A DNA stretch of 64,000 nucleotides from Dipteris shenzhenensis (taxonomy: Eukaryota). Made by a program: the position numbers and the translations under genes. Positions 7,730-63,126 of this stretch are shown piece after piece; position 1 is the stretch's first letter; each line of letters starts with the position of its first letter. The notes beneath the pieces were generated by a model. That model did not search any database. It saw nothing but the letters and a program-made list of their open reading frames with translations, and was not told the origin of the DNA. The DNA is taken from NCBI GenBank assembly GCA_047967505.1, contig CM106538.1, one strand, 5' to 3'.

Positions 7730-8297
7730 TCTACTTCCAAAAATCAATTAAGAGAAACTACATAGAATCCAAAAGGCCCTTACAAGCCTATCTTAAAGTG
7801 GGATTCACTTGTTTTTTTTTTCCTAGGAAAAACAAGAGAGTACAGGTACTCGTGAGCACTGCCTTCTGTAGTTAATAAAAAGTTTTACATTAAAAAAAAA
7901 AAGAATGTATGTACATGTGTACATGTGTGGATATCAGTTACACATGTAACTGTTACAGAAACAAAGCGAACTGCCATTGTTGTAAGTTCTTCTGAGCTAG
8001 TAACGCCCTTGTTTGCCACAATGTATCAGATCACACATGTGTTATCGAGTGTTTTGCGTTGTTGTCTGATTGTGGTTGTATATGTTTTGTGCTTCAATAG
8101 AGGTGTTTGAAGTTGTTAGACATTGCTGTTTGGAATCTGGAGAAGAAAGACAATTTCATTAGATTTGTATGTTGCTGCTGTTAACTATAATCTGATATCA
8201 AAATGAAAATAAAGAATGCATAGAACAAAATCTTTACTTTGTTTTGGAACTTGAGGTATTATGCTTCAGCAAAGGTCTTTGGAGCAATCAAAATGTC

Positions 8298-8850
8298 CTA
8301 TAAATGAGCATTTGTCCATATATGATCTAATTGTGAATTATATACTGTTGTTGATTGTTTGAATGTGAGTTTCATGCCAAAGTTGTCCATGAGCATTTGC
8401 AATTTTGATTGTTCTGGACTGGAGGCTAGCATGTCTATGTTTAGGTCGCCAAGTACAATTGTTGGACATGTTGGTGGTGAGGGCCTCATCACATCTTGCA
8501 ATTCATGTAGATATGTAGCAATGTTTGCTCTTGGTGAACAATATGTTGAAATGATGAATACTAAATTTCTTGTACAAGGTTTGATATGTGCTGCAATGAA
8601 TTCATTTTCGTTTGTAGTGTTAAGTTGGACAATGTGGATTGGCAACGTGTTGTTGTAGAGTATAGCAGTGCCCATTGTGTTGTTTGTTGTTATTGCTTTA
8701 TGTTGCGATTGGTTAAAGTAGAGGGATGGATCATGGGTTCTTGTCGCATGCAAACAGAGTATATCGGAGGCTTGCAAATTAGGATGGTAGTTAATGTCTT
8801 CATAATGTGAAGGTAAAGATCTTGTGTTCAATGATTGGACACTTAAGTTT
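8298..8850 (-). pseudogene. Apurinic-like (EEP) endonuclease domain of copy A
   Basis: SLNTRSL, DILCLH, STYCSP, VLGDLNID, SQLDHIWTN. In the same ORF (8298-9161) as the helicase C-terminal motifs ARTICRSQSMTL and TYTTLSRV. Confidence 0.85.
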
Positions 8851-9672
8851 GTGTCTTTGTACCGGTGCAGATGTGGAATAGCTAAGGCCCATGCCTTTTC
8901 TGTGGATAGTCTTGTCATTTCTTTTTCGACCTTTGGATCCATTTTGAAATTTCGGTGTGTTAGTGGCTTTAGCAAGTATAATTGGTCTTTGTGGCATACA
9001 CGCGATAATGTTGTATATGTTAGGCCATGGTTTATTGAGCCTATTGGATCAAATGCAAGACTATCCAATGTCATGCTTTGAGAGCGACATATTGTTCTAG
9101 CAGTTGCAGGTTGTGTTGGGAACTGCATTCTTGTTATCGTATAGTGTTTATTTTGACCCATTTGAATGTCCTTCGTTATTGGTCGAATTGGTGTCCATTG
9201 TTCGTGTACGTTGTTTGTATATAAGTGCTTGTTTTTTGAGTGTGTTATCTCACCTACTTTTCATTGTGGAATTTGATCCAAATAATTGGATCTTTATTAT
9301 CCGTATTTGTTCCTTTGAAAACACCATCAGCACCGTTTACAAGTCTGTCGTTACTGTTGTAGTTTTTGACACATAGTTCTATGGCTGTTTCTATTTTGAA
9401 TTGCAGTGTCTTATGCAAGCTGGTTATTTTTTTAGGATTATCGAGTAGGCAAAAATGTTTAGGGCACATGCTTGTGTGTGTATCAATTGCATGAAATGTG
9501 AAAGGATCTCCTGCAATTTTGTTGAGGATCATGTCATTGTGGTGTTTGGTTGATTTTGCATAATAGAACAAATGAGGAATTGTTAGGCTAGGTGGGAGAG
9601 GCTTGCAGCAAGTGCTATTTATGTTGTCGATGTCATAATCTGTTTGAATTATTGTCCTAAATCTGTTTAAAA

Positions 9673-10990
9673 ATGCCTTCGAAGTCGCTTGTGAAGACCC
9701 ACTCTTTTCTTAAAAAGACCATTGCACAGCATATGGACAAATTACTTCAGCAACAAACATGCAGCACCTCTTTGGCAAGCAAACACAGATGCACAATTCA
9801 TACTAGACCCATATGTAGCAGCAAGCTACTGTACATCGTACATCACTAAAGTTGACAACACAATCATGAAAGGACTACATGAAATAATGGCACAATGTCA
9901 TTCGAGACCAAACTAATGTAGCAACTCGCATTCGAAAAATGGGGAGTGCATTTTTGAACATGCAACAAATGTCAGCACAACAAGCAGCATATATAATTCT
10001 ATTGTTTCTAATGTACCATTCATCTAGACCATGCCAATTTATCAATACATCACCATCAAAAGACCGTGCTTTCATTTTAAAACCACTTACGATGCTACAA
10101 AGGGCTTATGAACTAGAAACTGAATCACACAACACACTAGGGATGGAAGCATTTCAAGGTGCAACACTGCTAGACCTAGTGACAACAATCAACGTAACAA
10201 ACTATGATCCTACTCCTGATATAAATGCCATTGCCACAACCGCAATAATAAGACAAGAAAAGACAAACCAACCAATGCTTGATACGATTCAATTAAAGCA
10301 TGTCATGTTATCATCACTAGAATATCATCATCAAATTCGAGGCTTAAACCAAGAACAAAGGCTGATTTTTTATGACATAATGTATAGAAAAAGAACAAGC
10401 TCCACCATTCCACTGCATATTTTCATCAACGGGGGTGCAGGAACAAGAAAAAGCACTATCCTAACCTTGCTAGTCGAACAATTAACCAGGCTCTATAACA
10501 AAGAACTAGGTGTTGATCCCTTAAAATTGAAAGTCTTAAAAGTTGCATACACTGGTAAAGCTGCATGCCACATGGACAGGAGCACAATTCATGCATCTTT
10601 AGCTATCCCTGTTAATTATAAGAACTTAGCACACCTGCACTTGCAAAATAAGCCTGAGTAAGAGCCTTCCACTACCAACAATAAACTGGACATGTTGACT
10701 AAAGCTTAAGCGAGCTCAAGGCAATAGTAATTGATGAAATCTCTCTCGTAGGTAGAAGAATGTTCAAATTCATTGATCAGAGATTGTGTGACATCATGCA
10801 TATTCAACATCTACCATTCGTTGGCCTTGACATTATTTTGGTTGGCGACCTATGCCAAATCCGTCTAGTACGAGACAAATGGATATTTCGCGAAACATCA
10901 ATTTTTGAACTTGCACATTTTTGGTAGCATTGCATTTACTAGTACAAGCTAACAGAGCCTATGCACCAAGAAGATCCAGAGTTTGTGAAT
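9673..10990 (+). pseudogene. Inverted internal segment of copy A (Rep C-terminus plus helicase N-terminal half)
   Basis: Plus strand reads LRSRL*RPTLFLKRP...YCTSYITK...GGAGTRKS...LTEPMHQEDPEFVN, while both flanks code on the minus strand. Confidence 0.9.
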
Positions 10991-12780
10991 CCAAAATAAG
11001 TTCTTCCAAGAATTGTAACAATGTCCGGTCATCTGAACTTGAGACAGAGTTTAATGCTTGGTATATTTCTTGTAATGTTTTCATTATTTCCTTGCAATGA
11101 CTTTTTAGTGGTGTAAGAATTGTCGTTCTATTCATTGCTGGTAAAGGGTAATGAAATCGACATGTTTGTTGTTCATTCTTTCTACAAGTGTAAGTATGAT
11201 GATGCATTTGGATGTCACATATAGTAGGATCTAGGAGTTTTTCATCACATGATATGTATTTGTCCACAAACTCTGTCACTTTATTGTTTTTTGTGTTGTT
11301 GTAGCATGGAGCGTTTCTTATCCAAAGGAGCACGTGCTCATGAAGGCTTCCTCGATTTTGGGCTTCTGTGATCAGAAAAAAATCATCTACTTGTCTGAAC
11401 ATCGTGTCATAGGTTTTTAAGAGTGTTCTCAGTGCTTGTGTTCAATGATTGTAATAGCATGCACATGTCACACGATCATTTCGTATAAGCTCATGCATGG
11501 AAATTTCTTTTGTGTCCTGCCCTCATTCTTGAACCATCAATTTCCTCAGAGCAGTTGTCAACGGGGCCCACCTACTCTCTACGCTTATGAAGGTGACAAA
11601 GAATGTCAGCGGCCCCAACTGTCTGATCATTGCGAATACTTGTTTGCGTAGGCGTTTCAAATCGTCTGGCGATGTCCGAAGTTGGACCAAGTCTCGATGT
11701 TCTACATCCGATTGTAGGCTTTTATCTAGATTGGGCTTTGTTTTAACGTCTTTTGTTGTGAGTTCGCATCCTTGTAACTTTGCTTTTCGTATACGTATCC
11801 ATGCAAAGCTTGCAACGTTTTTGGAAAGTATACTTATTGCCTTTAAAAAAAGGCTCGTTGTATGTAAAGCATGGCGTCTGTCTTTGTGAAGAATCTCCCA
11901 TTTTATACTTTGGTGGTAGCTATTATTTTGTAAATTTTTTTCTGACATTGGATATCCAAAGAATAATGTTTTTTTCTTCACAGTGCTTGTCTTTGAGTAT
12001 GAATATTGGTTTTTGGTCTTCAGTTGGAGCTATTGCTAGTACCTGAGTTTCATTGTCAAAGACAGCATGCGAACTTGTAAAACCATGCAAAAGTGTGTCT
12101 ATGTATATTTCATCTGTGTTGTTTTGATACATGTCGATGCAATGGTCTTCTTTTTTTATATTGGTATCTTCAACCATAGTTGAAAGTTTGAATAGTGGTA
12201 GCCATTCTGCTGAGATTGTTACATTTGCTTCTTTATAAATAGGCTTACTAGCTAGCATGTGCAGAGCTTTCATAACACGGTTTGGACATACACTCCCTGT
12301 GGTGTATGAATTTTTGTACTCCAAACGTCTTTTAATTGCAACAGCGATTACTGTTTCATCGTCCAGTTGGCGTGGTAAAACAGATTGTACAATGTCTATG
12401 GTGTTTGGTACGTTGATGATGCTTCCTTTCATAATATATTGCCCATATCCAGAGTACTGTCGTATTTGTGTAAAAGTTGCACGTGGTGCTATTAAATGCT
12501 CTTTGAGTTGGTTCAAACTTGATATCTCTTTTATGCATGTCTTTAATTCCATTTCAGTAGAATCAGCATATCATGAAATCTTGTCCTTGTTAACGTCTTG
12601 CAAACAAGCTTTGCATATGTCTAAATTATCAGCAAAGTTGAGCCAGTGTAATGTAGCTTCCTCCCGCAAGAATGTTATTACACTTTCGTTTGCCTATGTT
12701 ACCTACTGAAGGAAAAACAGTCTGCAACAACAACAGCACAAGTGAGTAGGAGTGTCTGCAATGGTATGCCTGAAGCGTGC
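10991..12780 (-). pseudogene. Zn finger, DUF6570-like region and HUH Rep domain of copy A
   Basis: DTPTHLCCCCCRLFF, ICKAC, KGSIINVP, FAMIRQLGPLTFFVTF, RGSLHEH, QMHHHTYTCRK, CRFHYP. Confidence 0.85.
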
Positions 12781-12816
12781 AACAGCTTTTGATTTTGTCA
12801 AGCTGGAGTGGTTGAC

Positions 12817-13340
12817 TCAACGAACAGTTTTTTTAGTGTTGAGATATTTTATATGTCGAGCGATTTGAGCTATGGTCTTAGTACTATGACCTATGTCTCT
12901 CACGAAGGCATCAGCAATGTTTCTGTAAGACTTTGATGGTGTTTCTTGTAGCATTGAAAGAAGTTTTTCATTGTCGTATAATGACCATGGACTGCGAGAA
13001 TAGTGGTTGGTCTTGCGCTTTCTTCTTTGTTTTTCCTTCAAGATTGGTAAGGTAATAGTATTCTCAGTGCACGTTGAATGTTTTTCAAGTGCTTGGGTAC
13101 CGAGAGTCTTTATTGAAGTATTGTCAGTGTGTTCCTACATTGTCCTGTGCTGGCTTTATTTGCGTAAGATTTGTGTGTGCGCAATTACCTGGGTACTGTT
13201 ATATTCATTGTCATCTCTTTGCTTTATGAATTGCTGTGCAATCATTCTATTAGTATAGTCTTTGTGCATGTCCATTATTTGATGTAGCAAGTCATTATTC
13301 TCGGTTGTCCACTTTGTGTTTTCTCTTTGTTTTTGGTATT
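12817..13340 (-). pseudogene. Two SANT/Myb-like helix-turn-helix repeats
   Basis: KWTTENNDLLHQIMDMHKDYTNRMIAQQF and PWSLYDNEKLLSMLQETPSKSYRNIADAF. Copy B has a similar WNEKDANEIQQIL...SAKEVASLF. Confidence 0.55.
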
Positions 13341-13380
13341 GTGTTCATGTCATTGTCATTATCTTGTGTTGCGACATGAA

Positions 13381-13929
13381 TCAACTCCATTTTGGTAATT
13401 GGTACACGTTCCTCTGAACATGGATATTGATCGAGAATAGGCAAATTGGCTCAAAGTGTTGTACGTGACCAGGTCTATCATCGTATGCTATTTGCATAGC
13501 AGGCATCTGAAAGCAATTGCCGTGTGTTATTATGATATGAGAGTAATGTTGCAACCAAACAACAATAGGCCTGAGCAGCAGATCTGATATCCACTGGATT
13601 GAAAAGTAATCACCCCACAAGCCAACATGTTCAGCTGGTAAAGCCATTCGGTAGAGATACTCACCTGGTGTCTGGACATTCTGAAGACTTTGTAAGAACT
13701 CTGGTGCAAGGGCACATGATAAGCAGGATAGTGCAATGTTATTTTGCTGCTGAAGCTTTTGCATAAAATGTTGTACCATCATGTGTTGCAAGGTCATGGA
13801 TGTGAAACTCTTTCCTATGCAATATGAAATAGAATCAAACAGATAGTCACCGCCTTTGTATGGGTAGTTGGAAATCTGTATGCATTGCCGGGTCAACAAA
13901 ACATTGTCGAGCGAAATTAATTGTTGCAT
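13381..13929 (-). pseudogene. OTU-like cysteine protease domain at the N-terminus of the copy A polyprotein
   Basis: KGGDYLFDSIS (OTU GDCLF box, Cys now Tyr), YLYRM, WGDYFSIQWISDLLLRPIVVW, HFEPI. Confidence 0.75.
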
Positions 13930-14149
13930 AGGTTTAGATCGTGCATTTTGTTTGTCATTGTTTTTTGTGATATTTTAATGATGCAATATATTACATTACA
14001 AGCTTTATTGCAATTGAAATAGTACAACAACTGTACATCGAACTCATAATGTCATTTATATCTGACAAAAAAGCATTGGAAGTGTTACTGTAAACTGGAT
14101 TGCGTTCACAACCACCTAGTCCTCCATTCTCCTCTTCCCTTTTTCAAAC

Positions 14150-15560
14150 GCTTCAGCTAAGATATGTACAGCTCATGGAATTGTTTAGCAAGAACCGAGT
14201 ACTAGATTTGTTCTATATCATTGAAACCAGTAACACTCATAGATGCATTGACGTGAAATCCACCGAATTTCTTTATCTTGGAGATTTTTTTGCGAAATGC
14301 GACTTCATCTTGCATAAAGTAGGTAACTATGTCTTCATCAATTTGCATAGCAGGGAGCCATGGTTCACGTACAGTGACGCTGACAATCTCTCCATCTAGA
14401 GCCAAGACCTACCCATGCATTTGTGAAACATGTACGAAGTCCACTTTTTTTTAACACCGTTCACAGAAAAAGGAATCCCGTGCCACTTTAATTAATGATG
14501 TTGCATTATTGCATTCGACACAAGTATTGAAGTATGGTGCTCCAGTGTTCTCAAAGGTAAATTTCCCAATGATCTGTTAATATAACAACATAAGAGGCTT
14601 GAATGTATATTTTTTTAAAATTGCATCCGTGCGTTTTAAAATAGAAGTGAAATAGTGCAATAAAAGTGAAATTGTAGTTTACCTCTTTCACGGAGCTTTT
14701 TTCTAATTTGTGGAATACAACTACCTCTGTCAGCTTCTTGACATCTTCTTCATATGTTACAGGAAATGCGAAAGAGCAACTCGTAAATAGCAATTTCCTT
14801 GTTGTTGAATCATCGTTTGTGAGCCCCACATTTTTCACAACGTATGTTGTTGTGTGACCACTAAGGAGCTCCTCAAGCATGTTCTTTTTAACATCTTCAA
14901 AGTCATCCCAAAAAGCAAGCTACAGTACAAGCAAAAAAGTGGTTAAAGTAAACCAAATAAGAAGTATGACCAAGATAATGGTTTTTCATACTCACATTTG
15001 TTAACTTTATGTGATAAGTAGTACTCACTATTGTAACATCCTTGAATGTTGTTCCATCGGCAACTTTTAGAAAGTGTTGCTTCGCATATTGTCCTTCGAT
15101 GTAGTACAGCGAATTGAACAATTATTGAAATGAACCTCTCCGTTTCCTTGCAAAAGCTTGCAATGTCAACTGTTGGGAACATTTATAAGCGAACCTCGAA
15201 TTTTGGAATTGATGTCATACATGTTCCACTAGTTTGATTAGAAACTCTGAATCACCTTTTTCATATATGTTTCCTTTTCTTCTTATTACTTGAAAGTTTT
15301 TGACTCGAACACAAGTGTCTTGTTTAATTAGTTTCTCGTGAAAAGCAATCAAGGTATTGTCAAGCTGTAATGTGACTATGATCAACCCCAACTTGTTTGT
15401 TAAATCTGCACAGACATTTTGGTACTTGGAGTCTTTTTTCTTGTCATACGTGCCGTACCTATTTAAAATTAAACCCTCAAAGGTGACATCTCATATGTTC
15501 ACCTGGAGGTCTTTTATTTGAACAACCTCAAGTATTGAGTTTATCTCTAGACAGATTTTA
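14150..15560 (-). pseudogene. RPA70-like multi-OB-fold ssDNA-binding protein, intron-containing (copy A)
   Basis: IKDLQVNI*DVTFEGLILNRYGTY...ADLTNK...VRVKNFQV; KVADGTTFKDVTI, then a GTGAGT..AG intron (14920-15028), then LAFWDD. Confidence 0.7.
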
Positions 15561-16329
15561 CTTGGTACAGCGGAGTGCTTCTTCTCTATGCTGGTAATAT
15601 TACTTTTACCAATAGCTTTTTTTTGCAACAGGCAAAAGCTCATCATCGTGTTCTCTTTTTTGAGTGCCTAACGCTTGCTTTTTCGTTTCCATATTTCAAA
15701 GCATGCTTACCTGCCAAACCAATAAAAAAGTTACTGAGATCAATATACACTTCCTCAATGTGAAATGTAAATTACAATGTATTAAAATATATTATCATAC
15801 TTATACCTATATGAATACATGTACATGCACACGTGGACATCTACTCACGCATGTGCATATACCTATACATGTACGTATGTACATGAAGCTATATATAGTG
15901 TACGTATTTGTAGAATCCATGCAATAGTGAAAGTGTATTTTAGTTGTTCTAAAACAACGAACTATTATAACAATATATACTTAAACATTTAAAAGCATTC
16001 ACATTAGAGATAAAATAAGTCTCGTTGATATTGTACTTGTACCTTGACAAATAAATTTTCAAGTATTCTAGGACTTGTTTATGATAGTGTCTTTGTATTT
16101 TTTTAAAGGATCTTTTGTAATAGCTTTTGATTTGTTTACGCTTCACTATCAATGGCATAAACTACACCTATATAAAAACATTTACCTGCAAAAGTTTTTT
16201 TCTATGGAAAGTCAGTACAAGAGAAAAGAACAATCAAGTAGCTACATTGTATGTGGGTACTGTAAATAAAAATTACAAATTGAAAAACAAATCAGTAGCT
16301 TTCAAATACTATTTATTTATTATCATATC

Positions 16330-17630
16330 GAAGTCCTGACTTCGTGGAAGCCTCTATTCCAAGATTACAAGCACTGGTCATCATGAAGCTTATTCAATAT
16401 ATATCTTTCCTTGGGTGCACTAGTATATTCTATCACTTTTAGTAATTTGCTAATGTTAAAGCAAAGTGAATAGATATCCTGCACTTTGCAATATCGTGGA
16501 GGATTAATGCTGAAACATTCAGGTGCAACATGTCGACATTTCTGTTTGTGTTGCTTGAATGTTTCAACAGAACCATCTGGAAGAGTTGGAAATGTTTTTA
16601 GAAGTATCGGTCTTGGTGCTTAAGCTCCATCCCACTAAACCAAAAAAAGCATCATCTGTTTCCTGCGAGAAATGAACCATTATATTTCTAGAGTGTAAGT
16701 TGTTGTGTAGAATGCCTTTACTATGTATGTATTTGATAGTTTCAATTAAGCCATTGATGATGTCAAATATGTGGCACTTAAAGCATTCCAAAGTGCCCAC
16801 TTCTTTAGATATATCTAAGAAATCCTTAGGTACAGATCTAGAAGTATTTGCATTCATCAAGTATGGCCATCTATCCAAATGGCTACCGTTCCAGTACCTA
16901 TATATGACCATTGGTTCATTTTCGTCTCTGACCAACCCTATTGCATTGACAATACCTGGATGAGTCACATGTATACATGTAGCCTCCAATAGTGCAAGCA
17001 CTTCTTTATTGTTCTGACTATTGCTTCACACAAAACATTTTGAAGCAAATATATCATTCTTAAAAGTCTCCTCTAAAATCTTGACCTTGTTGACCTGTGT
17101 ATAAGTGCCATTCCCTATATGTGCTTCTGGTAAAAAGATAACTTGTCTATAGTGTAACAACTTGACAGAAGGTGAAGTAACTGATGTTGACAGATATACA
17201 ATGTTGCGAACTTGTATGTTTTCTTTTTCTTTTGAGCAACTACCCTTGCCTTTGTAAGCCATGTGTAATTGTTCAAGTAAGGTAACCTTATTCCGAAAAC
17301 AAGGATCATTAGAAAATTGATGACCTAATGACTGCGCAGATATGCCAATCTGTCCGATAATTCTGAGGCATTCTCCACGTAGGTATCCCTCAGACAACAA
17401 CCAAGCTTGACTCTCAAATTTTGGCCATTTGGTACACAACTCTCTAAATGCAGTGTTTGCTAGGTGTTCCACTAAAATAGGAAAATCTTTACCATTCACA
17501 GTGAAGGCATCTCTGAGTTCCTTTTCTTGCATATTAACTAGAGTTACAACCACACACTGTGAATAGTGTCGGCGTTCCATCTTTGTTAGATCCATTCTTT
17601 TTCTTTTTTCTCCAAGGTGTTCCATGAGCT
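16330..17630 (-). pseudogene. Protein kinase pseudogene, apparently intronless
   Basis: IGNGTYTQV, FASKCF, LALLEA, HPGIV, LHNNLHSRNI, HVAPECF, DIYSL. In-frame TGA at 17026-17028 and a frameshift near 16600. Confidence 0.85.
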
Positions 17631-18179
17631 GCAACATTTTACAAAATAAGAGCCTATACAAAATAGTAGAACAAATATTGGAAAAGATATAAACATTGTT
17701 TAAATACAAAAAGATAATTCCATCATTAAATAAACTTAGGATAGTTACAATGTTCTAATGCATAATAAAATGCACACACTATTAAAAGTACGATGAAACT
17801 AAAGCTATATTTGTGCACTCCTTGTAAAAAAAACTACTATAACAATATATCGTAAACATAATGAGACCTTTTTTACAGTATTTATGCTATTCTATTATGA
17901 AATCAAATGTGTAGTCTATGTACATCAAGATATATTAGTATACTTAATAAAGACGTAATATAGTTGAAAAGTGTATATATTATTCATTGTACGATGTGGT
18001 ATGTATATCAGATAGTAATAGTATATATGTATGTGTAAATTGAACTAGTTTTAGCATATGAATACTATTTCATTATGAAATAAAATGCGTATATATAACA
18101 AGTGCAATGGATCTTAGAGTGTTTACACCATTTTATCATGAAAAAGAGTGTATATACCAAGCTATTTATATATATTAAG

Positions 18180-19700
18180 AAGAACTACAGTAAAGGTTAA
18201 ATTGTAAATATTATGTTTAGAAAAGATATATTATACACATGGTATTTACACAAACGAAACAAGTCTTGGAATGTCCACATTGTTCCAGTCCAGAATAAAA
18301 TGTACACAACAAGTACAATAACTCTTAGAATGTTCACACTATCCCATTCTAGGATAGAATGCACACACTAAGTTTGCACATAAATTATTAGACACTTAGT
18401 GTTCATACAAACGAAACAAGTCTTAGAATGTTCACATTGTTCTAGTATAAAACAAAATGTACACACTAAGTACAATTCTTAGAATGTTCACACTATCCCA
18501 TTCTAGGATAGAATGTACACACTAAGTAACAGTACATATGTATTTGTAAATGGGGCCAATTTTAGAATATTCATACTATTTCACTACAAAATAAAATACA
18601 TGCATATACTAAATGCAAAGAAGGTTAAAGTATATATATTATGTTTAGAAAAGATACATTACACAACTAGTATTTATACAAATGAAACAAGGATTAGAAT
18701 GTTCACATTGTTCCAGCTATATTTATATGTTAAGCAGAACTACATTAAAGGTTAAAGTGTATATATCATGTTTGGAAAAGCTATATTACACGTATAGTAT
18801 TCACATAAACAAAACAAGTATTGGAATGTTCACATTGTTCCAATACATAACAAAATGTACACACTAAGTACAATAATTCTTAGAATGTTCACACTATCCC
18901 ATTACATAATAGAATGTACACACTAAGCTCTCACAAAAATGAAACAAATCTTACAATATTTATTGTTTCAGTATTTACAGTATTTACTATTTCACTAAGT
19001 TCTCACAAAAATGAAACAAATCTTACAATATTTACTGTTTTAGTACAAAATAAAAAACAAGACAAAATGTACACGCTAAGTTTCTATATAAATTAAACAA
19101 GTCTTAGAATACTGACACTATTCCAATACAGAACAGAATGTGTATACTAAGTGTAGTAACTCTTAGAATGTTCACACTATTCCAAGGATAGAGTGCACAC
19201 ACTAAGTTATGTCAACATGTTAATTGGAGCCAAAATAAACCTTAAAGTATACACATCCACTTTAAAAGATATAAGAAGATATGCATAATACCTAAGTAAA
19301 TGAAAACAATACTAACAATCTTAGAATGCTCACACTGTTTCATTACAAAACAGAATGTGCACACTAAGTAAGACATATTAATATATTCCAACACATAACA
19401 GAATGTATTCACTAAGTGCAATAACTCTTAGAATGTTCACTCTATTCCATAAAGGGATAGAGTGCACACACTAATTATGTCAACATGTTAATTGGAGCCA
19501 AAATAAACCTTAAAGTATACACATCCACTTTAAAAGATACAAGATATGTATAATACCTATGTAAATGAAAACAATGTTAATATTCTTAGAATGCTCACAC
19601 TCTTTCATTACAAAACAGAATGTGTACATTAAGTATAACGAGTCTTTGAATGTTCACATCATTCCATTTCAGAATAGAGTGTATACACTAAGATATATTA
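18180..19700. repeat. AT-rich hierarchical minisatellite
   Basis: Recurrent CTTAGAATGTTCACACT...AGAATGTACACACTAAG units (~55-60 bp). Higher-order duplication of about 19130-19370 at about 19400-19630. Confidence 0.85.
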
Positions 19701-20675: not shown

Positions 20676-20715
20676 ATTGGATCGCTTGCGAAGGTCACGC
20701 TGTTTCTGAATTGGA

Positions 20716-27400: not shown

Positions 27401-27503
27401 ATGGCAATACGAAATGCATGTAGGGTTGGGGCAATCCAATTAAGATCAAGAGGCATCGCATTTAATCTAAATGATAGCCTAGGAGAAGGTGGTTCTACTA
27501 GCC

Positions 27504-27504
<1 letters not shown>

Positions 27505-27540
<36 letters not shown>

Positions 27541-27860: not shown

Positions 27861-28414
27861 TATCTAGACCATTAATCGTTTGTATACTTAGGTTAATCGG
27901 GCATATTTGCACCCTCTTCTACTCAACATTGTGCCTTGCCCCAAACTAATTAATGTATTTTTTAACATCATGGTAATGAAGATCTCCGATTCACATTAAT
28001 TAATTAGTTTTGCTGCATGGAGGCTTAATTAAGTTATGTTTATTTATGGCTTAATTTATATATGCTTTAATTAAGCTATGTTTCTTTTATTTATGGATTA
28101 ATTAACTTATGTTTCTCCATGGCTTAATTTATTTTATGCATAGACTATGTCCTAAGGGGGGCTTCCCCAAACTTTAAAGAAAAGATTAGAATCCAAAACC
28201 TTCTTTTTCCCATGAGTGAGCCCTACCACTAAGCTATAAAGTACTATTATATAACCATCTCCTTATAAGAGTATTACAAATGCTCCCTAGTATTACAAAT
28301 TCTCCCTCATCCCCCTCCCCCCCTCTTTAATTCCCCCCTCCCCACTCTCAAGTTCCCCCCTCTTTAATGCCCCTATCTTCCATTTACCTTTATACCTTAG
28401 TTTAATGATGGCCT

Positions 28415-30997
28415 TACTAGAACTCCTTGAAAATTTTAGCATTCAACCCATCTGGGCTTGGCACTTTCTCGTCCGCCAAAGTAGGGCCAGGCCAACCGCC
28501 CCTATTGGTACTCTGACACCCTCGGGGCTAGGTCCTCTAGGCCAGGACGTGATCGACATGGCCAATGTGGCGATGACAAACGGCACTCTCTTTGAAGACG
28601 TGAACTCAAGGCTTCTGAAGCTCATCCCCAAAAGATAGAACAGATTGAAAGTGGGGGACTGGAGGCCGCTAAGTCTGATGAACACCTTGTACAAGGTGAT
28701 TGCCAAGGCGCTAGTAGCTATCTGAAATCGAGAGATCTATCGCGTTTGTGGTGGATGAGGAGAAGAACCTCTTCATCATGGGGTGATACATTTTCGAGAA
28801 CGTTTTGAACATGTCTCTTGCTCTCGATCATGCCTCCCTCATCATAGGTCGCGAAAGGTTGTGATGTTCGGCCTGGATCTTGACAAGGCCTACAATAGGA
28901 TAAGGTGGGACTACATCACGACAGTGCTACTCCATTTGGGATTCGGCTAAGAGTTTGTCAATAAGGTTCTCTGCTTAGTTGGCAATGTAGCTGCGATTCT
29001 GTGCATCAATGGAGGGATGGTAGGTAGGTTTGAACTGAGGAGATCAGTCCAGCAAGGATGCCCGATCACTCCACTGCTGTTCACCATCGCGATGGTCCCT
29101 CTGATGCACATGATGAAAACAAAGGTGGCTAAAGGTGAAATCAGAGGTCTGGTTCCTCCGTCCGGTAGGAAGTTTTGCACCCAACTGTTTGTCGACAATA
29201 CTATATCTATCTCAAATGAAGATCCAGAGAGTGTGCATCACCTCCTTGAGGTGGTAGATAGATTTTGCAAGGTTTCAGGACCCGTTTGCAGTTGGAGCAA
29301 GTCATTCACATTGAGGTCATCACCCGACTCGGGATGGCTGTCCAACATGGGGGTCGCTATCTTGCTGAGAGGAGAAGTGATCAGATACCTTGGCTCACCC
29401 TTGGGACTAGGGATCACGCTCTGTCAGAGGTTCGATTGGTTCAAAGACAAGGTGAAGGCGAAGCTTAGGTCTTGGCATGACATCAACCTGGGTTGGAATG
29501 CCCAGAGCTTAGTCTTGTAGCACATCCTCACAGCCTCTATCACGTATGTAGCCTAAATATGGAACTTTAGGAAGACCCATTGGTAGAGATCGAAGCCCTT
29601 TTCAAGAGCATTCTGTGGGCGAAAGAGGCAGGAAAAAGGCGCATGCACTACATTCCTTGGAAGCCATTGAAAGTGCATAAACTTCAGGGAGCACTAGGCC
29701 TCCCAGATGTGAGGCAGAAGAACGTGGCATTGATAGCCAAATGGCTCCCCAGAATCTTTACCAAGCAGGCGCCATGGATTGAAATAACCAAGAGTTTTGT
29801 GGAGAAATGCAAGTCGAAGGATGTGGGACTTTGGGGCAGGTTGGGGTGGTATGAGAGACTCGTCTCTCAATTCTTGTGTAAAGTCGTAGGGTCCTTGGCA
29901 GCTGGCCTAGTCAGAGCTTGGAAGAGCACTGCACAGGCGTTGCGCCTAATAGGTAAGGCAAGGCCTTTGGCCTCCATGATTTGATTAGGGCAAGGAATCT
30001 CTATAGGAAGGGGATCTAGGTGTGGAAGGATGTTTGGAATCAACGCAAGGTAGATTCGAAGACCCTTGATGAGCTGAGAGAAGAGTTCACTATCTCACAG
30101 GGCAAGGAGGACCTGCTGCAGAGCAGTGCTCGAACGAACCCCATATGGGTGGCTGACAAAACAACATCAACGCTCGAAGGCCAATGGTTCATAGGCCAAG
30201 AACCCCGCTCCACAATATAACTACAAGGATCATTAGTAAACGCTTATTGTAGCAGGAGGGCTTGGCCATCAAGCTCAATAGATTATGCAGGAAGAAGAGG
30301 CTGACAGAGATCTGGAAGGACTGCAAGGTGGGCAAGGCAAAGTTCATTCTTTGGAAAACCTTGAATCAGTGGCTCCCGGTGGAAGCCAAGCTAGCGAGAT
30401 GGATGTAGGTCAATCCAGGGTGTACCTTATGTGGAAGCGCTCGTGAAGATGTCATGCACCTATGCTGGAAGTGCCGAGCTATTAGGGAAGTATGGAAACA
30501 ATTGGAAGTAGCAATCAGAGGCTTGGGCTTGATGGCAAGGTTTACCATCGAGGTGAAGTGGAGACTCCCAGTGTTAGGGGAGTGTACCAGATTGCCCTCC
30601 ACCTTGGCAACCTGTTGACCATATCTAAGGATGGTAGTGATTTTAGGGGTAAGGGAGATTAGGAACGGGATGGTCTTCAAACACGGAGTTCAAGCAGGTT
30701 TTAGGGTCATGACTATTCTAGCAGTCGTGAAAGTGTGCCTGAGAGTTTTTGGGAAGCTTCTAGACAGTTCGGACCCAGTCGTCAGCCACACCATCCTCTC
30801 GGTTGAGGCGGCATTTGGGGTAGGGTAAGTATGGCTCTGTGCTGCGTAGGCCTTGGGCTCTCGCCCCTAGGTTGGCCAAATTTTGTAAGGGTTCTTTTTT
30901 TAGGGGACTGAACCCATTTTTGGCCTACCCTAGGGTAGCCTAAGCAATGGCTACATTTTGGCAAAAGCCTAAATTCATTGTTTATGAATTAAAATAA
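28415..30997 (+). mobile_element. 5'-truncated L1-clade LINE (RT plus zinc-binding domain) with 5' inversion
   Basis: LKLIPK, DWRPLSLMNTLYKVIAKAL, LDLDKAYNRIRW, SVQQGCPITPLLF, QLFVDNT, IRYLGSPLG, CTLC...EDVMHLCWKC. A-rich end near 30990. Confidence 0.9.
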
Positions 30998-32009
30998 ACA
31001 TTTGTTTTAAAATGGATTCCCATTGGCCAAATTGATGGCGCATTCGTTGTTTGATGATCTCCCATTGGCAAAAATGACAGCGCTTTGAGTGGTTGGTGGC
31101 GCATGTGGTGGTGCCTTTGGTTTGTGTGGAGCTTTCCAGTTTTTTGTTTTTGACAAGCTCTTCAAGACTCGCCTCTTCCAACGTTGAGCATCTCCCTTCA
31201 CGCCTCTGCGAAGGCGACCATCTTCATTTCTCATGCATTAAAAGTCTAGGCTTAAGGTAGTTTCCATTCTCAGGACGCATCCTTCATGCCTTTGCAACAT
31301 TGAGGCTCTTCATTATTCATGCATTCAAAGCTCCAGGCTTATGTGACATTGTGTGGCAGTGGATGGTGAACTTCAACATGGTTCGGAGTCACTGCGGTAC
31401 TTATGCATCATTTCAATCATGTTTTCTTCTACAAGAAGGTTAATACATGTTTTGATTTTTGTGCAAGTGTATGCTCGATTGAGTTGAATCATCTGAATTT
31501 TCCAATGATGCAGTGGAGAGTTTTGCTGCTACATCTGTGGTCCCCACATCTTGTGTAGGCTTCACAATAACAACTCATGTGGAATGTAGTAAGAAGCATA
31601 AAAAACATAAAAGCGAAGAAGCACAAGTAGTGCCCTCCAAAAGAAGCAAGAAGGATGTGATTATTATTGATTAATACTCTATTATTTTGACATGTCTATG
31701 TAGGCATTTTTGAGAAGTATCTTGGCCAAAAAAAGTACATGGTTTTTCTTTCATTGTATTATTTTTGTATTGGCAAATATGTTATCTTTTGAAGCATTGG
31801 AAATATAATTAACATCAAATTTATGAGTAGTTCTATTGTTCTTTCAACTTCTTGATCTTAATTGATTTAATTTGTACATGATATTGTGTTTTCCATTCAA
31901 ACATTATTCTATTTCTAATCACATTGCACCACAAAGAAATATGATTGCTAAATAATATTGTCGTAAATAGTGTATTAGCTTACTTTCTTCCACATTTGTA
32001 CTTGCAGCA

Positions 32010-33450
32010 AGTAAACAAGTGTTGTGCAAAGAGAAAAACGATAAGGTTAACTCCTACAATGGTCCTAACCATTCCCAAAATTTGCAACCACCACCTCATA
32101 ACTTTCCTTCTATTGCCAAAGCCATAGTGCCATCAAAGGAAAACTATGTAGGTGGGGGCAACTCTCTAGTGCAACTTAGCATTACTCAACTATCCAATTG
32201 CACTCCTTATAGATTTGTGTTTGAGGGAAAGTTACTTTGTAAGTATGGTACTTACAAAGTAGTAAATCCAAAATATCCCACTTTCTTGAAAGGCGACCTT
32301 AGCGATAAGTTTTGTTCTCACACTCTCACTTTACTCTTTCCTTCCACTTACATTCATCAATTTGTAAACTTTTTACAAGTTGGAGAATTCTATAGAACTG
32401 AAGGAACAAGTGTTGTAGTAAAACGGCCAACAGAGTGAGGAACCTCTAGATTTTCTTTGCTTGTTGATGCTACCACTTGCATCGTTAGAGGTGAACCATT
32501 TGAAGGAAACCTTTGTTTATTGCCCAATTGTCCTCTATGCACATACGTCTCTTGGGCAGCAGAGCATATAAACTTCAGCAAGTTGAATAAATCAAATGTG
32601 ATGGGCACAATTGCAATAGTGATAATCAAAGTGGAAAATGAAGAAGGAATGGCCAATCAAATAATTGTTGCAGATGGACCAAGAGATGAAGACCGAGTTG
32701 CAGTGAGTTAATCTCAAAAGTTATTTCTTTTGTTTATCATGAAGTATGTTTTGTCTCATGTTCAATTTTCTTTTGTAGTTGTCGTCCATGAATGAAAGAA
32801 AACCTACATCATCCCAGCTTGTGCAAGAATTCAATGACGAAGGTGTTGTTATGTACATCTTAAAGAACGTATCATTCTTAAAGGCAAAGAATACAATTTG
32901 TGTATTCGACTTCACCATTTTGGTGAAGGTTGCTGATGGTCCAACCAAAGAAGCTTTGCAAATAGCATTTTCTAGCCAAGTTTCTTGGCTAGGCTATGGC
33001 ACAAAGGTGCATAATCTTGCCTCCACACTTTTAATAATTATTCAACCATTAAAAATTTCCTAACAAATTGTTGTGCAACAACAAGTATTTGGTATTTTGT
33101 ACTTCACAAATGTGAATGTAGACCTTGTGGAGCATGTATGTGAGACTTGTGGAGGATTTCACATTAGCAAAGACCACTTCGACCATATTGCTACTCTTGC
33201 AAAGGACCTCAAAATGTTGAGCAAGTTGCTAGCTTGACTGGTGATATAGTTCAACGCAATGGAGAAGTGGTTCCAATTCATGTTCAAGGTCCATATGTTG
33301 ACATAATACTTTCCTTGAGTGTTCCTTTCCTCCAAATGTATGAGGAAGATCTTATGATGGCATGAAGCAAGCTCAAAACAACAAAACCTAGCGGTAGCTT
33401 CATCATTAATAGTTCTAGATTTGTAATTGCATTTGAGCCTAATGCATAGT
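32010..33450 (+). pseudogene. RPA70-like OB-fold protein, intron-containing (copy B)
   Basis: SITQLSNCTPYRFVFEGKLLCKYGTY...GDLSDK...LQVGEFYR; IVADGPRDEDRVA followed by a GTGAGT..TAG intron (32703-32778); C-terminal HVCETC zinc motif. Confidence 0.72.
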
Positions 33451-33559
33451 ATTTGCATTTGCTTGCCACAATACTTTTGTTGTAATGCAACGTGTCAACA
33501 ACATTTGGAATTTGTTGTTTATTGACATAATTGAAATAAAAGTGTATTCATTTGTGAAG

Positions 33560-36500
33560 ATGGAATTGCAAACTTTCCTTCGGAAAAAACAATTTACAAA
33601 AGATGAAACTTTTAATAGTTTATATCCCTTGAATACAAATATCATTGTTTGTCTTGTTCAAATTTTTCCAAGCTTTACTTATGAGGAAATATTGACAACT
33701 CTATTCGAAAACATTGTTTCTGATATAAATCATTTTAGTGTTCCATGGTATACCTTCCAAGCAATGTCTAACAAGTCGTGTTTGACAATAAATGACATGC
33801 AAAACTTAGTTCAAAGTTAGTCGACATAACTTGCACTAATTGTTGATATTCTTAAAAGATTAACATTATGTTTGATACATCATTTACTTTGCTATGTTAC
33901 AATGGAGTAATCATCAAGAATACATTCTCAATAGGAGCCACCAAATGAACTAATAGACATACTTTCTTGTTAGATCAATCCAATGATGTTCACACACTAA
34001 CTCCATTAATCCATTTAAGTAAAAAATGAACATATCAAGTGTGGAATGAAAAAGATGCAAATGAAATACAACAAATATTGATTCAAAAGCCTTTGCTCTC
34101 AGCCAAAGAAGTTGCTTCGTTATTCTTCCAAACTTCAAAAGAACCAACTTATACAATGCAAGTTGTTTTAAACAAAGTATACAAAATGCAAAGAAATTTC
34201 CTTTACCTAGCTGCAATGTTGAATACATCAAAATTTGTTGAAGAAGAACAACACATCAAAAGAAAGTCACAACTATGCAAAAGAAAAAGAAATGACAACA
34301 TATATGAAGAACAATATTGGGAAAAAATATTGGATACCCCATCATTTCCATGTATTTGTTGTGGATCACTGAAATTTCTATTGAATATGAGAAAGCTCAT
34401 AGAGCAAAAAGCAATATTTTTGCAAACCAATGGATTTACTATATCAAAATCAACTTCAAAAAAACATTACTTGTGTTCTATTTGCAACAAAGAAGTCAAA
34501 AAAAGAAAAATGCCATTGCTAAATAAGAGGAAAATGCAAATGCCTACTATACTACCATCAACAAGTCAACTAAATCAACTCAAGGCACATTTGGTTAGCA
34601 ATTCGTATACCTTTTGCTCAAATTCATGAGCTTTTGTATGAAGGGCAATATGGTCTACATGGAATTATTGTGAATGTATTTGCTAATGTTGATAGATCTC
34701 AATAAGTATTGCCAAGATTCACAGGGCAAAATGACACTATTGCAGTTGCAATAAAACACAAGCTATCATACAAAGATAGCTACATGAGTGGTACTGTGCG
34801 TCCAACATTAACTATGCTTGCTTTGGTGGATTTATCACAAACTCCTCTATATAAGGAAAATAAGGCAAAAGTAAATCCTCTTTGGGAAAGTCATACTAAG
34901 AATGTTCAACAATTCGAAGAGCAATTACAAGATGATATTAAAGAGAATATCCAAATAGAAGAAGATGATATTGCAACAGATACTCTTGTTCATGGCATAT
35001 ATGCAAGCCAACAAGTTGTCGACTTTGAAGATCAAACTATTGTTGCAACACCTTCTGAAGGATTTTCACCCCTAAGTATTTTTAAAGACAAATATTGTGA
35101 GGAATTAGCATATCCCAATCTTTTTTATGGGAAAAAAAGGAACTATGCAATTCCAAAGCACACTTCATACCAAACTATTGCAACTTGAGAATTATTAAAT
35201 GTGGACCATGGGTTTGCAACGTCAATAGATAATCTATTTTTCAAAACAATGAAAATATTGGTCCATCAAATTCTTTCTTCATCTTGGGTTTGTATGCAGC
35301 GTAAAGCACAAACAAAAGGTAGAACATTGCAAGACAAAGATGTTCTTTTGGATACTAATATTGAAAAACTTCTACAATCCAACTTTGGATTTCGTGACTT
35401 CACACATCTAAGAACTTCGATTGATTATAAGCAACAACTCAAAGAAAACCTATTTGCAATGTTAAGACAATTAGGACCACCATGTTTCTTTATAACACTA
35501 TCTGCTATAGAAAAACTTTGGGAGCCACTTCTACAATGTCTGAGAAAACTAAATCCTCCAAAAGATTCCACAATTTCTAACCCAAATATAGAAATTCATA
35601 ATTTGATAAGATCTGATCCTATAACAATAGCACAATACTACATATACAAATTTCAAGCCCTTAAGAATTTATTAAAAAAAGATGCAACAAAAATAAATGA
35701 CTTCTTCTTTGTAATAGAATTTCAAAATAGAGGTAGTCAACATGATCATGGCCTCTTGTGGGTCCAAAATTCCCCTAGGTTTGGAATTGATTCCAACCAT
35801 GACATTGAAAATTTTGTTGATAAATACATTTCAACAAATATCTCCAAATTCCCCCATGACAAACACGAGATGCAAACACACAAACATTGTAAAACTTGCT
35901 TCAAAAGAAAAGATAAATGTAGTTTTGGATTTCCATGTTTTCTTATATTGCAACAAACACAAATCTTGGAACCTTTGGAAGATCATATCGAAAACAAATA
36001 CTTCAAAAAAAACAATGAGAAAAATTAAAAGTCAGCTACTAGAAGAACATACATTAACACTAGACTACACTAGCTTTCTAGATGCATTGACTATGTCTGA
36101 AGAGGATTACATTCTTTTAATTCGTTCTTCTATTTCTCAACCCACTTTATTTTTACAAAGGGAACCAAAAGACATTTACACAAATAACCTAAACCCAACA
36201 ATGTCAAAGTTATGGGGAGTGAACACAGATTTTCGATTCATTCGAAACCCACATGGAGTAGCTGCATACTGCACATCATACATAACCAAAATAGACAAAG
36301 AGACAACAAAAGTTGTGAGTTAGCACTCGGTACAAGTATTGCTTCCAACACTCCAATAAACGAGTGCATTCATAGAGTGGGAAATGCCATCTTGAATACT
36401 CAACATATTAGCTCTCAATAAGCAGTTTACTTGGCACTTTCTTTACCATTATCATCATCCACTAGACAATTTCAATATATTAACACAAATCCTCCCAAAA

Positions 36501-39110
36501 AATGCACTTATCTACTAAAACATCGAGAGCAATTGGAGAAAATGCGCCCTAAAAATACCAACATCTTCTTTGATGACATCATGATGAAGTACTTGAAACA
36601 CACAATAATCTTCTAGATATATGCCTAGCAACTTTTATGAGCCAATACACAATTACAAATTTAAATACAAAAAAAGAAAGAAACATAAGATCATCCGCTT
36701 CAATAACTACAACCTTCAAAAAGACCCAAAAAATTACTACCACGAGAAATGCATTCTATTTCTTCCATATCACAATAATGAACTTACTCTTGATGAAAAT
36801 TATCAAACTTGGCATGACATGTTCTTTTCCAACAAACACATCATACAACCCAATGAAGACAGTTTATCAAACTAATTCTAAAATTCCCTGCAAGGTCAAA
36901 TGATACATTGACAACATCATTTTCAATATCAAACCAAACATTAACCAATGTCGACAAATATGACATTGGGTTAGAAATGCGAAAAAAAACAAAAATGTCT
37001 CAACATTTTGACAAGTCTTTGCCGAAATATTCAATGATGCCTAACACACAATATTACTATTCCATGAGAACAATGTTTGCTTCTCGAAGACATAATGCTA
37101 AAGAAAAAATGTGCTACGAATAAACGACATCATCTTTTCCTAACAAGAAATGTAGGAACAGGGAAAACATTCACACTACTACTCATAGTACAAGCCCTTT
37201 TACGACACTACTCACATAATCATTCATTAGACATAGAGCTCCCCAAATTGTTATTGCTTGCATACACAGGCAAGGCGACTTTCAACATTGGCGGCACAAC
37301 TATACATGCAGCACTTCATTTGCCACTAATGGCATCTCATTACACAAGCCTCTCAGCTGAAAAATTATAAGAACTATCTCAATTTGTACAAAGACCTTGA
37401 ACTAGTGGTATTTGATGAGGTATCTTTAATTGGACACAGTACACTTGTCGCTTTGCTGACATGTGTCTCCACGAGATTAAGCACAATCACTTGCAACCTT
37501 TTGAAGGAGTAGACATTATTCTTTGTGGAGATTTGTGTCAAGCAAGTGCAACAAAAGACTCATGGATATTCGTGGACCAAGCAACAAACACAAGATCAAT
37601 GTCATCATTTTGGAAAGACAATGTCCTAATTTATGAATTAATAAAGCTGATGCCCCAAGATGACAACACATGCTATATGGTATATTTAGTAAGCTGAATA
37701 GCATAAACCATGTGCTATGTAGCATACATAGTGTGCCCCATAAAATAAATACTTTCATCAAGCAATAAAAAAGGAAAACATACCTTACTTATTCTACACA
37801 AATGCAAGCAAGGATGCACGCAATGAGAAGGTCTTCTCATTACTTAAGAAAAATCCACATATCTTGAAAGCAATTGACAAAAGACACAAGACATGTAGCA
37901 AAACAATAAACATTCCTACATCTCCTAAGAACACATCAGGATTGCACCAAACATTGTACCTAAAGCTAGGAATGATAATAGAAATATGTTCAGGAAACTT
38001 GGACATTAGTGATGGTCTAGTCAACGGTGCCGATGCAATATTCAAACAATTGTTCATCGTAATTGAGCCTCAAATTGTTTAGGTTCAATTTACTAATAAT
38101 ATCATTGGAAGAAAAACTCGCTTCAACAACAAGCACCTCTACATTAACAGAATTTTCCCATAATGGACATACAAATAACAAGGGAATTTCAAATTTGAAA
38201 AAACCATTTGAACACTATCACTAGATGACAATTTCCACTACAACCAGTAGCAGCTGCAAGAACAATACACCGTTCCCAAGCTCTATCTATGGACTATCTT
38301 GCATTTAATCCTTCTTTCATCAAGGCACATGGCCTTACATACACAGCACTTTGCAACCTAGAGAACCTTTACCTCATGAAGCCACTCATACCTAAATACA
38401 TCAAAATCGACGAAAATGTTATGAAAGAAATAGAAAGATTGAGATTACATCGGCAATGGATACAAAATCAAATTAACCACTCCTTAAACAATACCCCACA
38501 AATGACGTTGTAATCTTTAAATGTTAGAGCATTCTCTTCACACTACAAAGACATTGTTGCTGACAAAAGCCTCATGAGTGTCACAATATTATGCCTCCAA
38601 GAACTTCATTGTCAAAATAATCAATCACTCTTCTTGGAAAATTTCACAATCTTGCAAAACAACAATGGCGTTGGAATTGCAACATGTTACAAAACTGATG
38701 TTCAATTGCAAATGCAAGAATACATTATACAGAAGAGATCAGAGTGTTTGTTAACAATATTCAAAACACATCAAAACTCAACATTTGTAATAATTAATGT
38801 TTACAAACACCCTTCCTCACCACAATCAACACTTATAAATATATTGCAAACAATGATAAACAAAGTACAACAGCAAATTCCGACTACAATATTAGGGGAC
38901 TTCAATATACATTGCAACAACACTACAAATTCAACACAACTACACAAATTCATGGGACAAAAGAATTTCAAACAATTAATAGAAGAACCAACTTGTATTC
39001 ATGGTTCCACAATTGATCATATCTGAAAAAACAAATATTGTAACAACACAACTTACAAAACAAATTTTATTCACTGGTCCGACCACTCCCTCTTATACAC
39101 AACAATTGAT
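33560..39110 (+). pseudogene. Disrupted Rep-helicase-endonuclease polyprotein of copy B (~5.5 kb)
   Basis: Successive plus-strand ORF pieces from 33485 to 39026 give HTH, CICC/CSIC zinc finger, DUF6570-like region, Rep, PIF1 and EEP domains in order. Confidence 0.88.

Positions 39111-63085: not shown

Positions 63086-63126
<41 letters not shown>

Follow-up and report, generated by a model that had tools for sequence, protein, structure and literature searches.

A 64,000-nucleotide stretch of contig CM106538.1 (GenBank assembly GCA_047967505.1, Dipteris shenzhenensis; hereafter the window), which is eukaryotic, from a land plant, and rich in transposable elements, carries two decayed loci, E1 (approximately 8,301–15,490, mainly on the minus strand) and E2 (approximately 32,139–39,107, plus strand). 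We are highly confident that both are relics of autonomous Helentrons (HLE2, endonuclease-bearing) integrated in a land-plant, probably fern, genome. Both loci show the hallmarks of the Helitron superfamily, namely a Rep domain with an HUH motif and two tyrosines, and a PIF1-type superfamily 1 helicase C-terminal to Rep, part of which lies on an inverted segment in E1. They also show those of HLE2, with DUF6570 N-terminal to Rep and an apurinic/apyrimidinic (AP)-type endonuclease (EN) of the endonuclease/exonuclease/phosphatase (EEP) class fused to the helicase C-terminus. The HELIANO study (2024, PMC11417382) gives DUF6570 as the HLE2 marker. HLE1 elements lack DUF6570 and the endonuclease, and E1 and E2 have both.

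Two Diverged Loci With One Coding Plan

An earlier, sequence-only reading of the window had described two elements on opposite strands that are alignable mainly as protein, and this is borne out. A blastn comparison (word 11, E ≤ 1e-5) finds no DNA similarity between E1 and E2, and as protein the loci match colinearly: E1 12492–11097 (minus) corresponds to E2 34595–35986 in three segments of 39–40% identity (E 2e-22 to 3e-30), and E1 9580–8304 (minus) corresponds to E2 37780–39038 at 32–34% identity (E 5e-16 and 2e-36). A full-length DUF6570-Rep-PIF1-EN polyprotein from the databases, P0009, maps in order onto both loci (2e-64 for E1 and 1e-73 for E2). Two other guide proteins, P0010 and P0079, repeat the pattern of P0009, and no further region of the window is matched by any of the three.

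In E1, read on the minus strand, the polyprotein begins with a CxxC...CxxC zinc finger followed by DUF6570 (11926–12795; CCCCC at 12724–12738 and CKAC at 12604–12615). Pfam recognizes DUF6570 at 6.1e-14, scoring 53 bits where the cut-off is 24.3. The zinc finger that had been read into the polyprotein is confirmed, and its four cysteines are nearly invariant among 22 aligned relatives. The N-terminal two-thirds of Rep follow at 10962–12029 (minus), with the HUH motif RGSLHEH at 11334–11354 and Pfam Helitron_like_N matches of 3.1e-6 and 5.9e-4; residues 219–534 of P0009 align to E1 11918–10998 (tblastn, E 2e-64) across stops at 11525 and 11444. The C-terminal part of Rep and the N-terminal half of PIF1 then lie on the plus strand, at 9671–10975, with the two-tyrosine motif YCTSYITK at 9827–9850, the Walker A motif GGAGTRKS at 10431–10454, and a Pfam PIF1 match of 1.7e-9 on that strand. 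The helicase 2B/C-terminal part and the fused AP-type (EEP) endonuclease return to the minus strand at 8301–9709, with GDLN at 8439–8450.

E1 carries an internal inversion of approximately 1.3 kb, because 9671–10975 (plus) is colinear with E2 36138–37613 and with P0009 residues 544–1098; as a result, the HUH motif and the catalytic tyrosines are on opposite strands. No inverted repeats were found at its breakpoints. The common domain order proposed for the two elements therefore stands in part: the order agrees with that of the relatives, and in E1 it is broken by the inverted segment.

In E2, all parts lie on the plus strand. The zinc finger and a DUF6570-homologous region span 34351–35104 (CICC at 34351–34362 and CSIC at 34474–34485). 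Pfam finds no match in the ORF (open reading frame) at 34706–35185; the DUF6570-homologous region is 39% identical over 173 aa to the DUF6570 region of E1 (E 2.7e-30), and the zinc-finger part is matched in 10 of the 150 best Rep relatives. Rep occupies 35117–36320 (Pfam Helitron_like_N 4.2e-18, 66.7 bits), with the HUH motif RGSQHDH at 35729–35749, YCTSYITK at 36267–36290, a stop at 35186, and a frame change near 36000. A PIF1-type helicase relic at 37068–38169 gives Pfam matches to PIF1 (1.3e-5) and Pif1_2B (4.9e-4) that are both just under the cut-offs, and residues 950–1312 of P0009 align to this region (E 3e-15 and 4e-25) across six stops. The C-terminal AP-type endonuclease lies at 38172–39107 (Pfam Exo_endo_phos_2 1.1e-6; 32% identity over 306 aa with that of E1, E 2.4e-36), with GDFN at 38895–38906 and WSDH at 39075–39086, past a stop at 39024.

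The two-tyrosine motif is thus identical in both copies, and the zinc finger and GD(L/F)N are also common to both; Walker A is found in E1 only. The Pfam cut-offs are exceeded by DUF6570, PIF1, and Exo_endo_phos in E1 and by Helitron_like_N and Exo_endo_phos_2 in E2. Both copies have the predicted RGSxHxH form of the HUH motif, and an EEP endonuclease follows the helicase in each, as had been proposed.

The C-Terminal Endonuclease

A single stop-free ORF of 320 aa in E1 (8301–9260; Pfam Exo_endo_phos 2.9e-8) spans both the helicase C-terminus and the endonuclease, and over its whole length it aligns with the C-terminal ends of relatives, e.g., residues 1291–1617 of P0009 (8e-34). By a strict criterion, 38 of the 150 best Rep relatives have a homologous C-terminal endonuclease, as do 36 of the 57 among them that are at least 1500 aa long; in 32 of the carriers, no more than 60 residues separate the end of the match from the C-terminus. 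An ESM Atlas feature search also gave matches to clusters that combine Pif1_2B and Exo_endo_phos. A profile built from 11 relatives matches PIF1 (3e-65), Helraiser (9e-36), and, at its C-terminal end, LINE (long interspersed nuclear element)-type endonucleases (4e-16); among the matches listed, the best Helraiser stretch is the helicase region, and no HLE1 Rep appears.

These alignments indicate that the endonuclease is native to the polyprotein. Its fusion to the helicase rules out a LINE insertion, the outcome that the sequence-only reading had set as its own refuter and that the shared ORF and the 38 relatives contradict. It is worth noting that a LINE reverse-transcriptase (RT) fragment does lie 8 kb upstream of the E2 endonuclease and that the endonuclease is itself of LINE/AP type, both of which would suit two independent insertions of a LINE endonuclease fragment into canonical plant Helitrons (HLE1). 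We consider such a history exceedingly improbable, given not only the E1 ORF and the homologous domain of the relatives, but also that the E1 and E2 endonucleases are each other's sole match within the window, that the RT-like ORF at 28951–29517 is the only one in the ORF/Pfam survey and has no second copy in the window by tblastn, and that DUF6570 occurs together with the RGS(P)H motif. A non-LTR (long terminal repeat) retrotransposon was also considered as the source of the endonuclease and was ruled out, as the domain follows a helicase and is not N-terminal to an RT in one ORF.

Relatives and Class Assignment

When the E2 Rep ORF was used as query in a full HMMER scan, 2469 proteins were found at E ≤ 1e-3. 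The four best matches are hypothetical proteins of the fern Adiantum nelumboides (46–53% identity), followed by polyproteins of 1600–2900 aa at 37–40% identity. DUF6570 is matched in 93 of the 150 best relatives. In a Pfam survey of 22 chosen long relatives (13 from the nearest clade and 9 others), 20 have DUF6570, 10 have Exo_endo_phos, 4 Herpes_teg_N, 2 OTU, and 1 Peptidase_C48. The RGS-H-H signature, which had been offered as a distinguishing motif, is present in E1 and E2 but proves to be the norm of the group, where most members read RGSPHxH.

In a FastTree phylogeny of Rep with 138 rows (E1, E2, and 136 of the 150 matches; 14 were dropped for covering fewer than 200 of the 279 query residues), a clade with SH-like support of 96 unites E1 and E2 with the four Adiantum proteins; it is nested within a 25-row clade (support 99), seven members of which carry the endonuclease. 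An IQ-TREE quick search under LG+C20 with 51 chosen rows recovers the same two groups with SH-aLRT values of 97 and 99, respectively. A phmmer search with the E2 Rep ORF does not retrieve Helraiser. Assignment to the Helentron type (HLE2), as opposed to canonical plant Helitrons, is supported by DUF6570, the endonuclease, and the company that E1 and E2 keep in these trees, whose rows hold no labelled HLE1 or HLE2 references. The E1 helicase-C/endonuclease ORF had no match among longer database proteins in a search that depends on shared words and is therefore weak evidence.

The E2 Rep is nearer to the Adiantum proteins (46–53% identity) than to E1 (38%). Because of this, E1 and E2 are, judged by protein identity, relics of two different, long-separated Helentron families. 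The proposal of an old, diversified plant lineage is accordingly upheld, in the form of a fern-associated one.

An alternative is that the loci are foreign DNA with no long residence in the plant genome, stemming from contamination or from a horizontal transfer out of an animal in the very recent past. The ESM Atlas clusters that combine Pif1_2B and Exo_endo_phos come from Mollusca, Chordata, and Cnidaria, and Thomas et al. (2014, PMC4067079) were unable to rule out contamination for their few plant matches. However, both copies are heavily decayed, and they share a contig with a pentatricopeptide repeat (PPR)-E gene, a LINE fragment, and a copia element, between which they lie. The named proteins most closely related to them come from the annotation of a fern genome, and a GT..AG intron of plant-like form is seen in the gene that precedes the polyprotein. 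A foreign origin is therefore very unlikely, and we retain the reading of E1 and E2 as Helentrons integrated in a plant genome.

A Candidate RPA-Like Gene Upstream of the Polyprotein

In both copies, the polyprotein is preceded by the relic of another gene, at 14205–15490 in E1 (minus, the polyprotein strand) and at 32139–33362 in E2 (plus; intron-like GT..AG at 32704–32778, stops at 32436 and 33061). The gene is common to the two loci, as E1 15481–15347 matches E2 32220–32354 (39% over 46 aa, E 0.001–0.002) and E1 14468–14355 matches E2 33186–33299 (E 0.001). In each copy, a C-x2-C...C-x2-C ribbon comes after beta-rich segments, with CVEC at 14508–14522 and FCERC at 14454–14468 in E1, and CETCG at 33139–33153 and YCYSC at 33186–33200, with a frameshift between them, in E2. 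The first ORF resembling an oligonucleotide/oligosaccharide-binding (OB) fold in E1 is 15218–15490.

The gene probably encodes an OB-fold, single-stranded DNA (ssDNA)-binding, RPA-like protein. The assignment to RPA70 is made because four lines of evidence agree, each of them weak. In E1, Pfam gives DUF223 at E = 0.11, which is not significant; DUF223 is a plant OB family of RPA70 type. A two-sequence profile run against the PDB has as its top matches three constructs of Teb1, an RPA70 paralogue, at the start of OB-A (E = 0.025, 0.07, and 0.6). An uninterrupted 155-aa ORF of the gene in E2 leads in the ESM Atlas to OB_Ssb-like, tRNA_anti-codon, and REPA_OB_2 clusters (0.76–0.81; low-score leads only). 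Finally, an AF2 model of the OB-like ORF from a two-sequence alignment is all-beta, at a pLDDT of 51. The claim of an RPA70-like gene thus holds as regards a real upstream gene shared by both copies; its family is weakly supported.

The gene might instead encode a different protein, either captured or specific to the element, that is rich in beta structure and has a zinc ribbon. No significant Pfam family is found in either copy, and the E2 ORFs have no Pfam match at all. Searches of the PDB by phmmer with the E2 OB ORF, the read-through protein P0156, and E1 14554–14919 gave nothing relevant, the AF2 model is of low confidence, and Foldseek with it returned no PDB match at E ≤ 0.001. P0156 also had no relative among database proteins of longer and near lengths, in a shared-word-dependent search that is weak evidence, and no similarity links the gene to the ssDNA-binding protein (SSB)-like ORFs of 10 metagenomic Helentron loci described below. 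Nevertheless, the Teb1 constructs are the top profile matches and fall at the start of an OB domain, the weak DUF223 match also points to RPA70, the Atlas leads are to OB_Ssb-like and REPA_OB_2 clusters, and the ribbon follows beta-rich domains in both copies. Helentrons are, in addition, known for highly divergent RPA genes, as described by Thomas et al. (2014, PMC4067079) and Roffler et al. (2015, PMC4683698). We regard a protein other than an RPA70-like one as unlikely, though by no means negligible, and keep the RPA-like reading as the probable one.

For comparison, a metagenome scan yielded 518 confirmed relatives, and 80 loci were retained. Twelve ORFs of approximately 360–416 aa form a conserved family found in 10 of these 80 loci (L009:10538–11785, L056:15466–16557, L057:6734–7831, L062:12757–13866, and eight more), always downstream of RepHel-EN. 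They are unrecognized by Pfam at E ≤ 0.001. A profile from an alignment of 8 of the 12 includes a CxxC...CxxC ribbon and finds, among PDB entries, an archaeal SSB at 1.9e-10 and replication factor A at 2.6e-4; by these profile matches the family is probably the divergent Helentron RPA/SSB gene. Endonuclease-bearing Helentrons therefore commonly carry a gene of the SSB/RPA type, in agreement with Thomas et al. (2014, PMC4067079). The candidate gene of E1 and E2 differs in lying upstream, on the same strand, with no detectable similarity to these downstream ORFs.

Protease-Like and Helix-Rich Segments

Between the upstream gene and the zinc finger, E1 has a possible OTU-like cysteine-protease relic, a 197-aa ORF at 13384–13974 (minus) in which the position of the catalytic cysteine motif reads GGDYLF. 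Nothing relevant was found for it in the PDB by phmmer, AF2 gave no usable model (pLDDT 37), and no counterpart was found in E2. The proposed OTU (deubiquitinase-like) domain is retained as a weak, sub-threshold match in E1, and it is missing from what could be identified in E2. Among the metagenomic loci, L043 has an upstream OTU ORF (3236–4927; 2e-12) and L009 has an upstream ORF with Herpes_teg_N and STPRs (534–1856), so two different protease-type N-terminal modules occur in otherwise similar elements.

Two helix-rich W...IA..F repeats at 12820–13344 in E1 (minus) and a single one at 34042–34200 in E2 (plus) had been read as a SANT DNA-binding module. The segments are homologous, since the E1 repeats plus zinc finger match E2 34042–34614 at 26.6% across 192 aa, with a small-database E of 1.6e-6. 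The SANT identity, however, finds no support: the E2 repeat gives Pfam Myb_DNA-bind_3 at E = 1, and a three-repeat profile finds no Myb/SANT structure in the PDB, where its best match is the SETMAR helix-turn-helix (E = 0.11). The upstream-gene, OTU, and SANT ORFs together found nothing at E < 0.1 by phmmer among the 150 Rep relatives and extra cluster members, and in the 80 metagenomic loci the zinc-finger part alone was matched by tblastn.

Decay of Both Copies and Points of Doubt

Alignment to guide proteins shows at least four in-frame stops (12573, 11525, 11444, and 9692) and several frame changes in E1, and at least 12 in-frame stops and several frame changes in E2. Both copies are dead pseudogenes, E2 being the one with the most stops and frame changes. 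Neither can transpose, because both have these lesions and E1 also has the inversion.

Several points weigh against the Helentron reading of E1 and E2, the first being the composition of the trees noted above. The fern host, likewise, is judged solely from the nearest named relatives. For the upstream gene, no single test is significant: a hidden Markov model (HMM) of the metagenomic SSB-like family does not pick out its ORFs among those of the window, and hhalign of the E1/E2 OB alignment with that family gives P = 0.13, which is not significant. The OTU-like ORF scores below threshold in Pfam (OTU, E = 0.012; 16.6 bits, where 23.3 are required), and although an HMM built from 12 OTU segments of Helentron relatives ranks it first among 1200 window ORFs, it does so at E = 0.09. 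The inversion in E1 could be an assembly error. A search around E1 and E2 for terminal inverted repeats, a 3′ stem-loop, and T|T junctions found nothing beyond chance in the window. The longest inverted repeat flanking E1 has arms of 28 nt at 7906–7933 and 15802–15829; it is 75% complementary, low-complexity and TGTACATG-rich, and not distinguishable from chance, so it is a candidate sub-terminal repeat only.

Comparison With Known Elements

Helentrons were described by Thomas et al. (2014, PMC4067079) as Rep/Hel/EN elements with OTU and RPA ORFs, with few and doubtful plant matches. Rep/Hel/EN plus OTU and RPA is thus canonical Helentron coding capacity, and the "virus-like gene set" that the sequence-only reading had singled out as unusual is ordinary for the group. 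Likewise, the suggestion that endonuclease- and OTU-bearing Helentrons are best known from animals and might be undescribed in plants is overtaken by published land-plant HLE2 elements: HELIANO (PMC11417382) reports HLE2 in 13 land-plant species of six classes, and an endonuclease-rich subgroup b with land-plant hosts. A literature search on Helentrons or HLE2 in ferns found no report among the papers listed; the HELIANO supplementary tables that name the positive species were outside this search.

E1 and E2 resemble Helentrons (HLE2 subgroup b in the HELIANO scheme; Poulter, 2003; Thomas et al., 2014) in joining, within one polyprotein, a zinc finger, DUF6570, a Rep that carries RGS(P)H.H and YxxxY, PIF1, and a C-terminal AP endonuclease, and possibly also in the accessory OTU and RPA-type genes, which are weakly supported here. 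They differ in having a land-plant host, in HUH motifs that read RGSLHEH and RGSQHDH where most relatives have RGSPHxH, and in the Rep identity of E2 to its best non-fern relatives, which is only 37–40%. Among land-plant HLE2 elements, HelenSM92 of Sphagnum magellanicum, as described by HELIANO, similarly resides in a land-plant genome, but its RepHel comes with a GIY-YIG domain, whereas E1 and E2 have an AP endonuclease instead.

By the same study, RPA lies upstream of RepHel in HLE2, where it is confined to subgroup a, and is usually downstream in HLE1. E1 and E2 would thus combine a possible RPA-like gene with an endonuclease-bearing RepHel, and their candidate gene is upstream, unlike that of most HLE1 elements. 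HLE1 elements with RPA (e.g., Mothra) and Helraiser (PDB 7LCC) share with E1 and E2 the HUH motif, the two tyrosines, PIF1, and possibly an accessory RPA-type gene, but have neither DUF6570 nor an endonuclease, both of which are found here.

An intact element would have encoded one polyprotein of the order zinc finger, DUF6570, HUH Rep, PIF1, and AP endonuclease, with a small gene ahead of it for an RPA-like protein that probably binds ssDNA through an OB fold; in E1, an OTU-like protease would precede it as well. By analogy with Helitron transposases, the HUH/two-tyrosine Rep would nick one strand at the element end and attach to it covalently, the 5′–3′ PIF1 helicase would peel off the nicked strand, and a single-stranded circle would form and insert between two T residues; the ssDNA-binding protein might coat this intermediate.

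Neighboring Features of the Window

The only apparently intact host gene noticed near the elements encodes a PPR protein with a C-terminal E motif (4922–7528, minus; 869 aa, uninterrupted; Pfam PPR_2 1e-113, E_motif 3e-14), and lies approximately 0.8 kb from the end of the E1 endonuclease ORF. Just upstream of E1 is a protein-kinase fragment (16567–17025, minus; Pfam PK_Tyr_Ser-Thr 1.7e-8), followed by a 242-aa ORF without a Pfam match (together 16567–17754, minus). The kinase fragment has no similarity to the complete kinase ORFs found downstream of RepHel in the metagenomic Helentron loci L042 and L022. A non-LTR (LINE) reverse-transcriptase remnant begins at 28951–29517 (plus; Pfam RVT_1 2.5e-8) and extends to approximately 30700, about 1.5 kb upstream of the first gene of E2; its ORFs after RVT_1 include a Cys/His-rich stretch. 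Downstream of E2, a Ty1/copia element lies at 41224–42721 (plus; Retrotran_gag_2 1.6e-24, gag_pre-integrs 1.4e-14), with ORFs that continue to approximately 44.8 kb. Tandem repeats occur at 19119–19635 (265-bp unit, 2 copies, 89% matches), with smaller arrays at 18.4–18.9 kb, and at 60617–61927 (182-bp unit, 7.4 copies, 71% matches). A 371-aa open frame without a Pfam match at E ≤ 0.001 runs off the end of the window (62887–63999, plus).

Implications for Plant Helentrons

The fern-associated, endonuclease-bearing Helentrons at E1 and E2 represent a transposon type already known from land plants. Both copies are dead, and they do not change the understanding of how Helentrons work. Possibly new is one detail only, namely the very divergent, intron-bearing candidate ssDNA-binding gene that precedes the polyprotein in a plant lineage with the endonuclease. 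A broader history can be put forward tentatively, as possible more than expected: ferns may harbor their own anciently diversified clade of endonuclease-bearing Helentrons, with at least two families more than 60% apart in Rep inside a single genome and with relatives in Adiantum, which would have acquired its own upstream, intron-containing ssDNA-binding gene, too divergent for Pfam, independently of other Helentrons. If true, an RPA-type gene and the endonuclease would occur in one plant HLE2 lineage, where HELIANO assigns them to different subgroups.

E1 and E2 provide concrete, anatomically described endonuclease-bearing Helentrons in a plant, probably a fern, of a group that was believed absent from land plants until 2024. 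They can serve as seeds for intact-copy searches and for fern repeat annotation, in which such relics would otherwise be misread as PIF1 helicase or exonuclease pseudogenes. They also hint at a very divergent ssDNA-binding gene in these plant elements, one that would escape domain scans.

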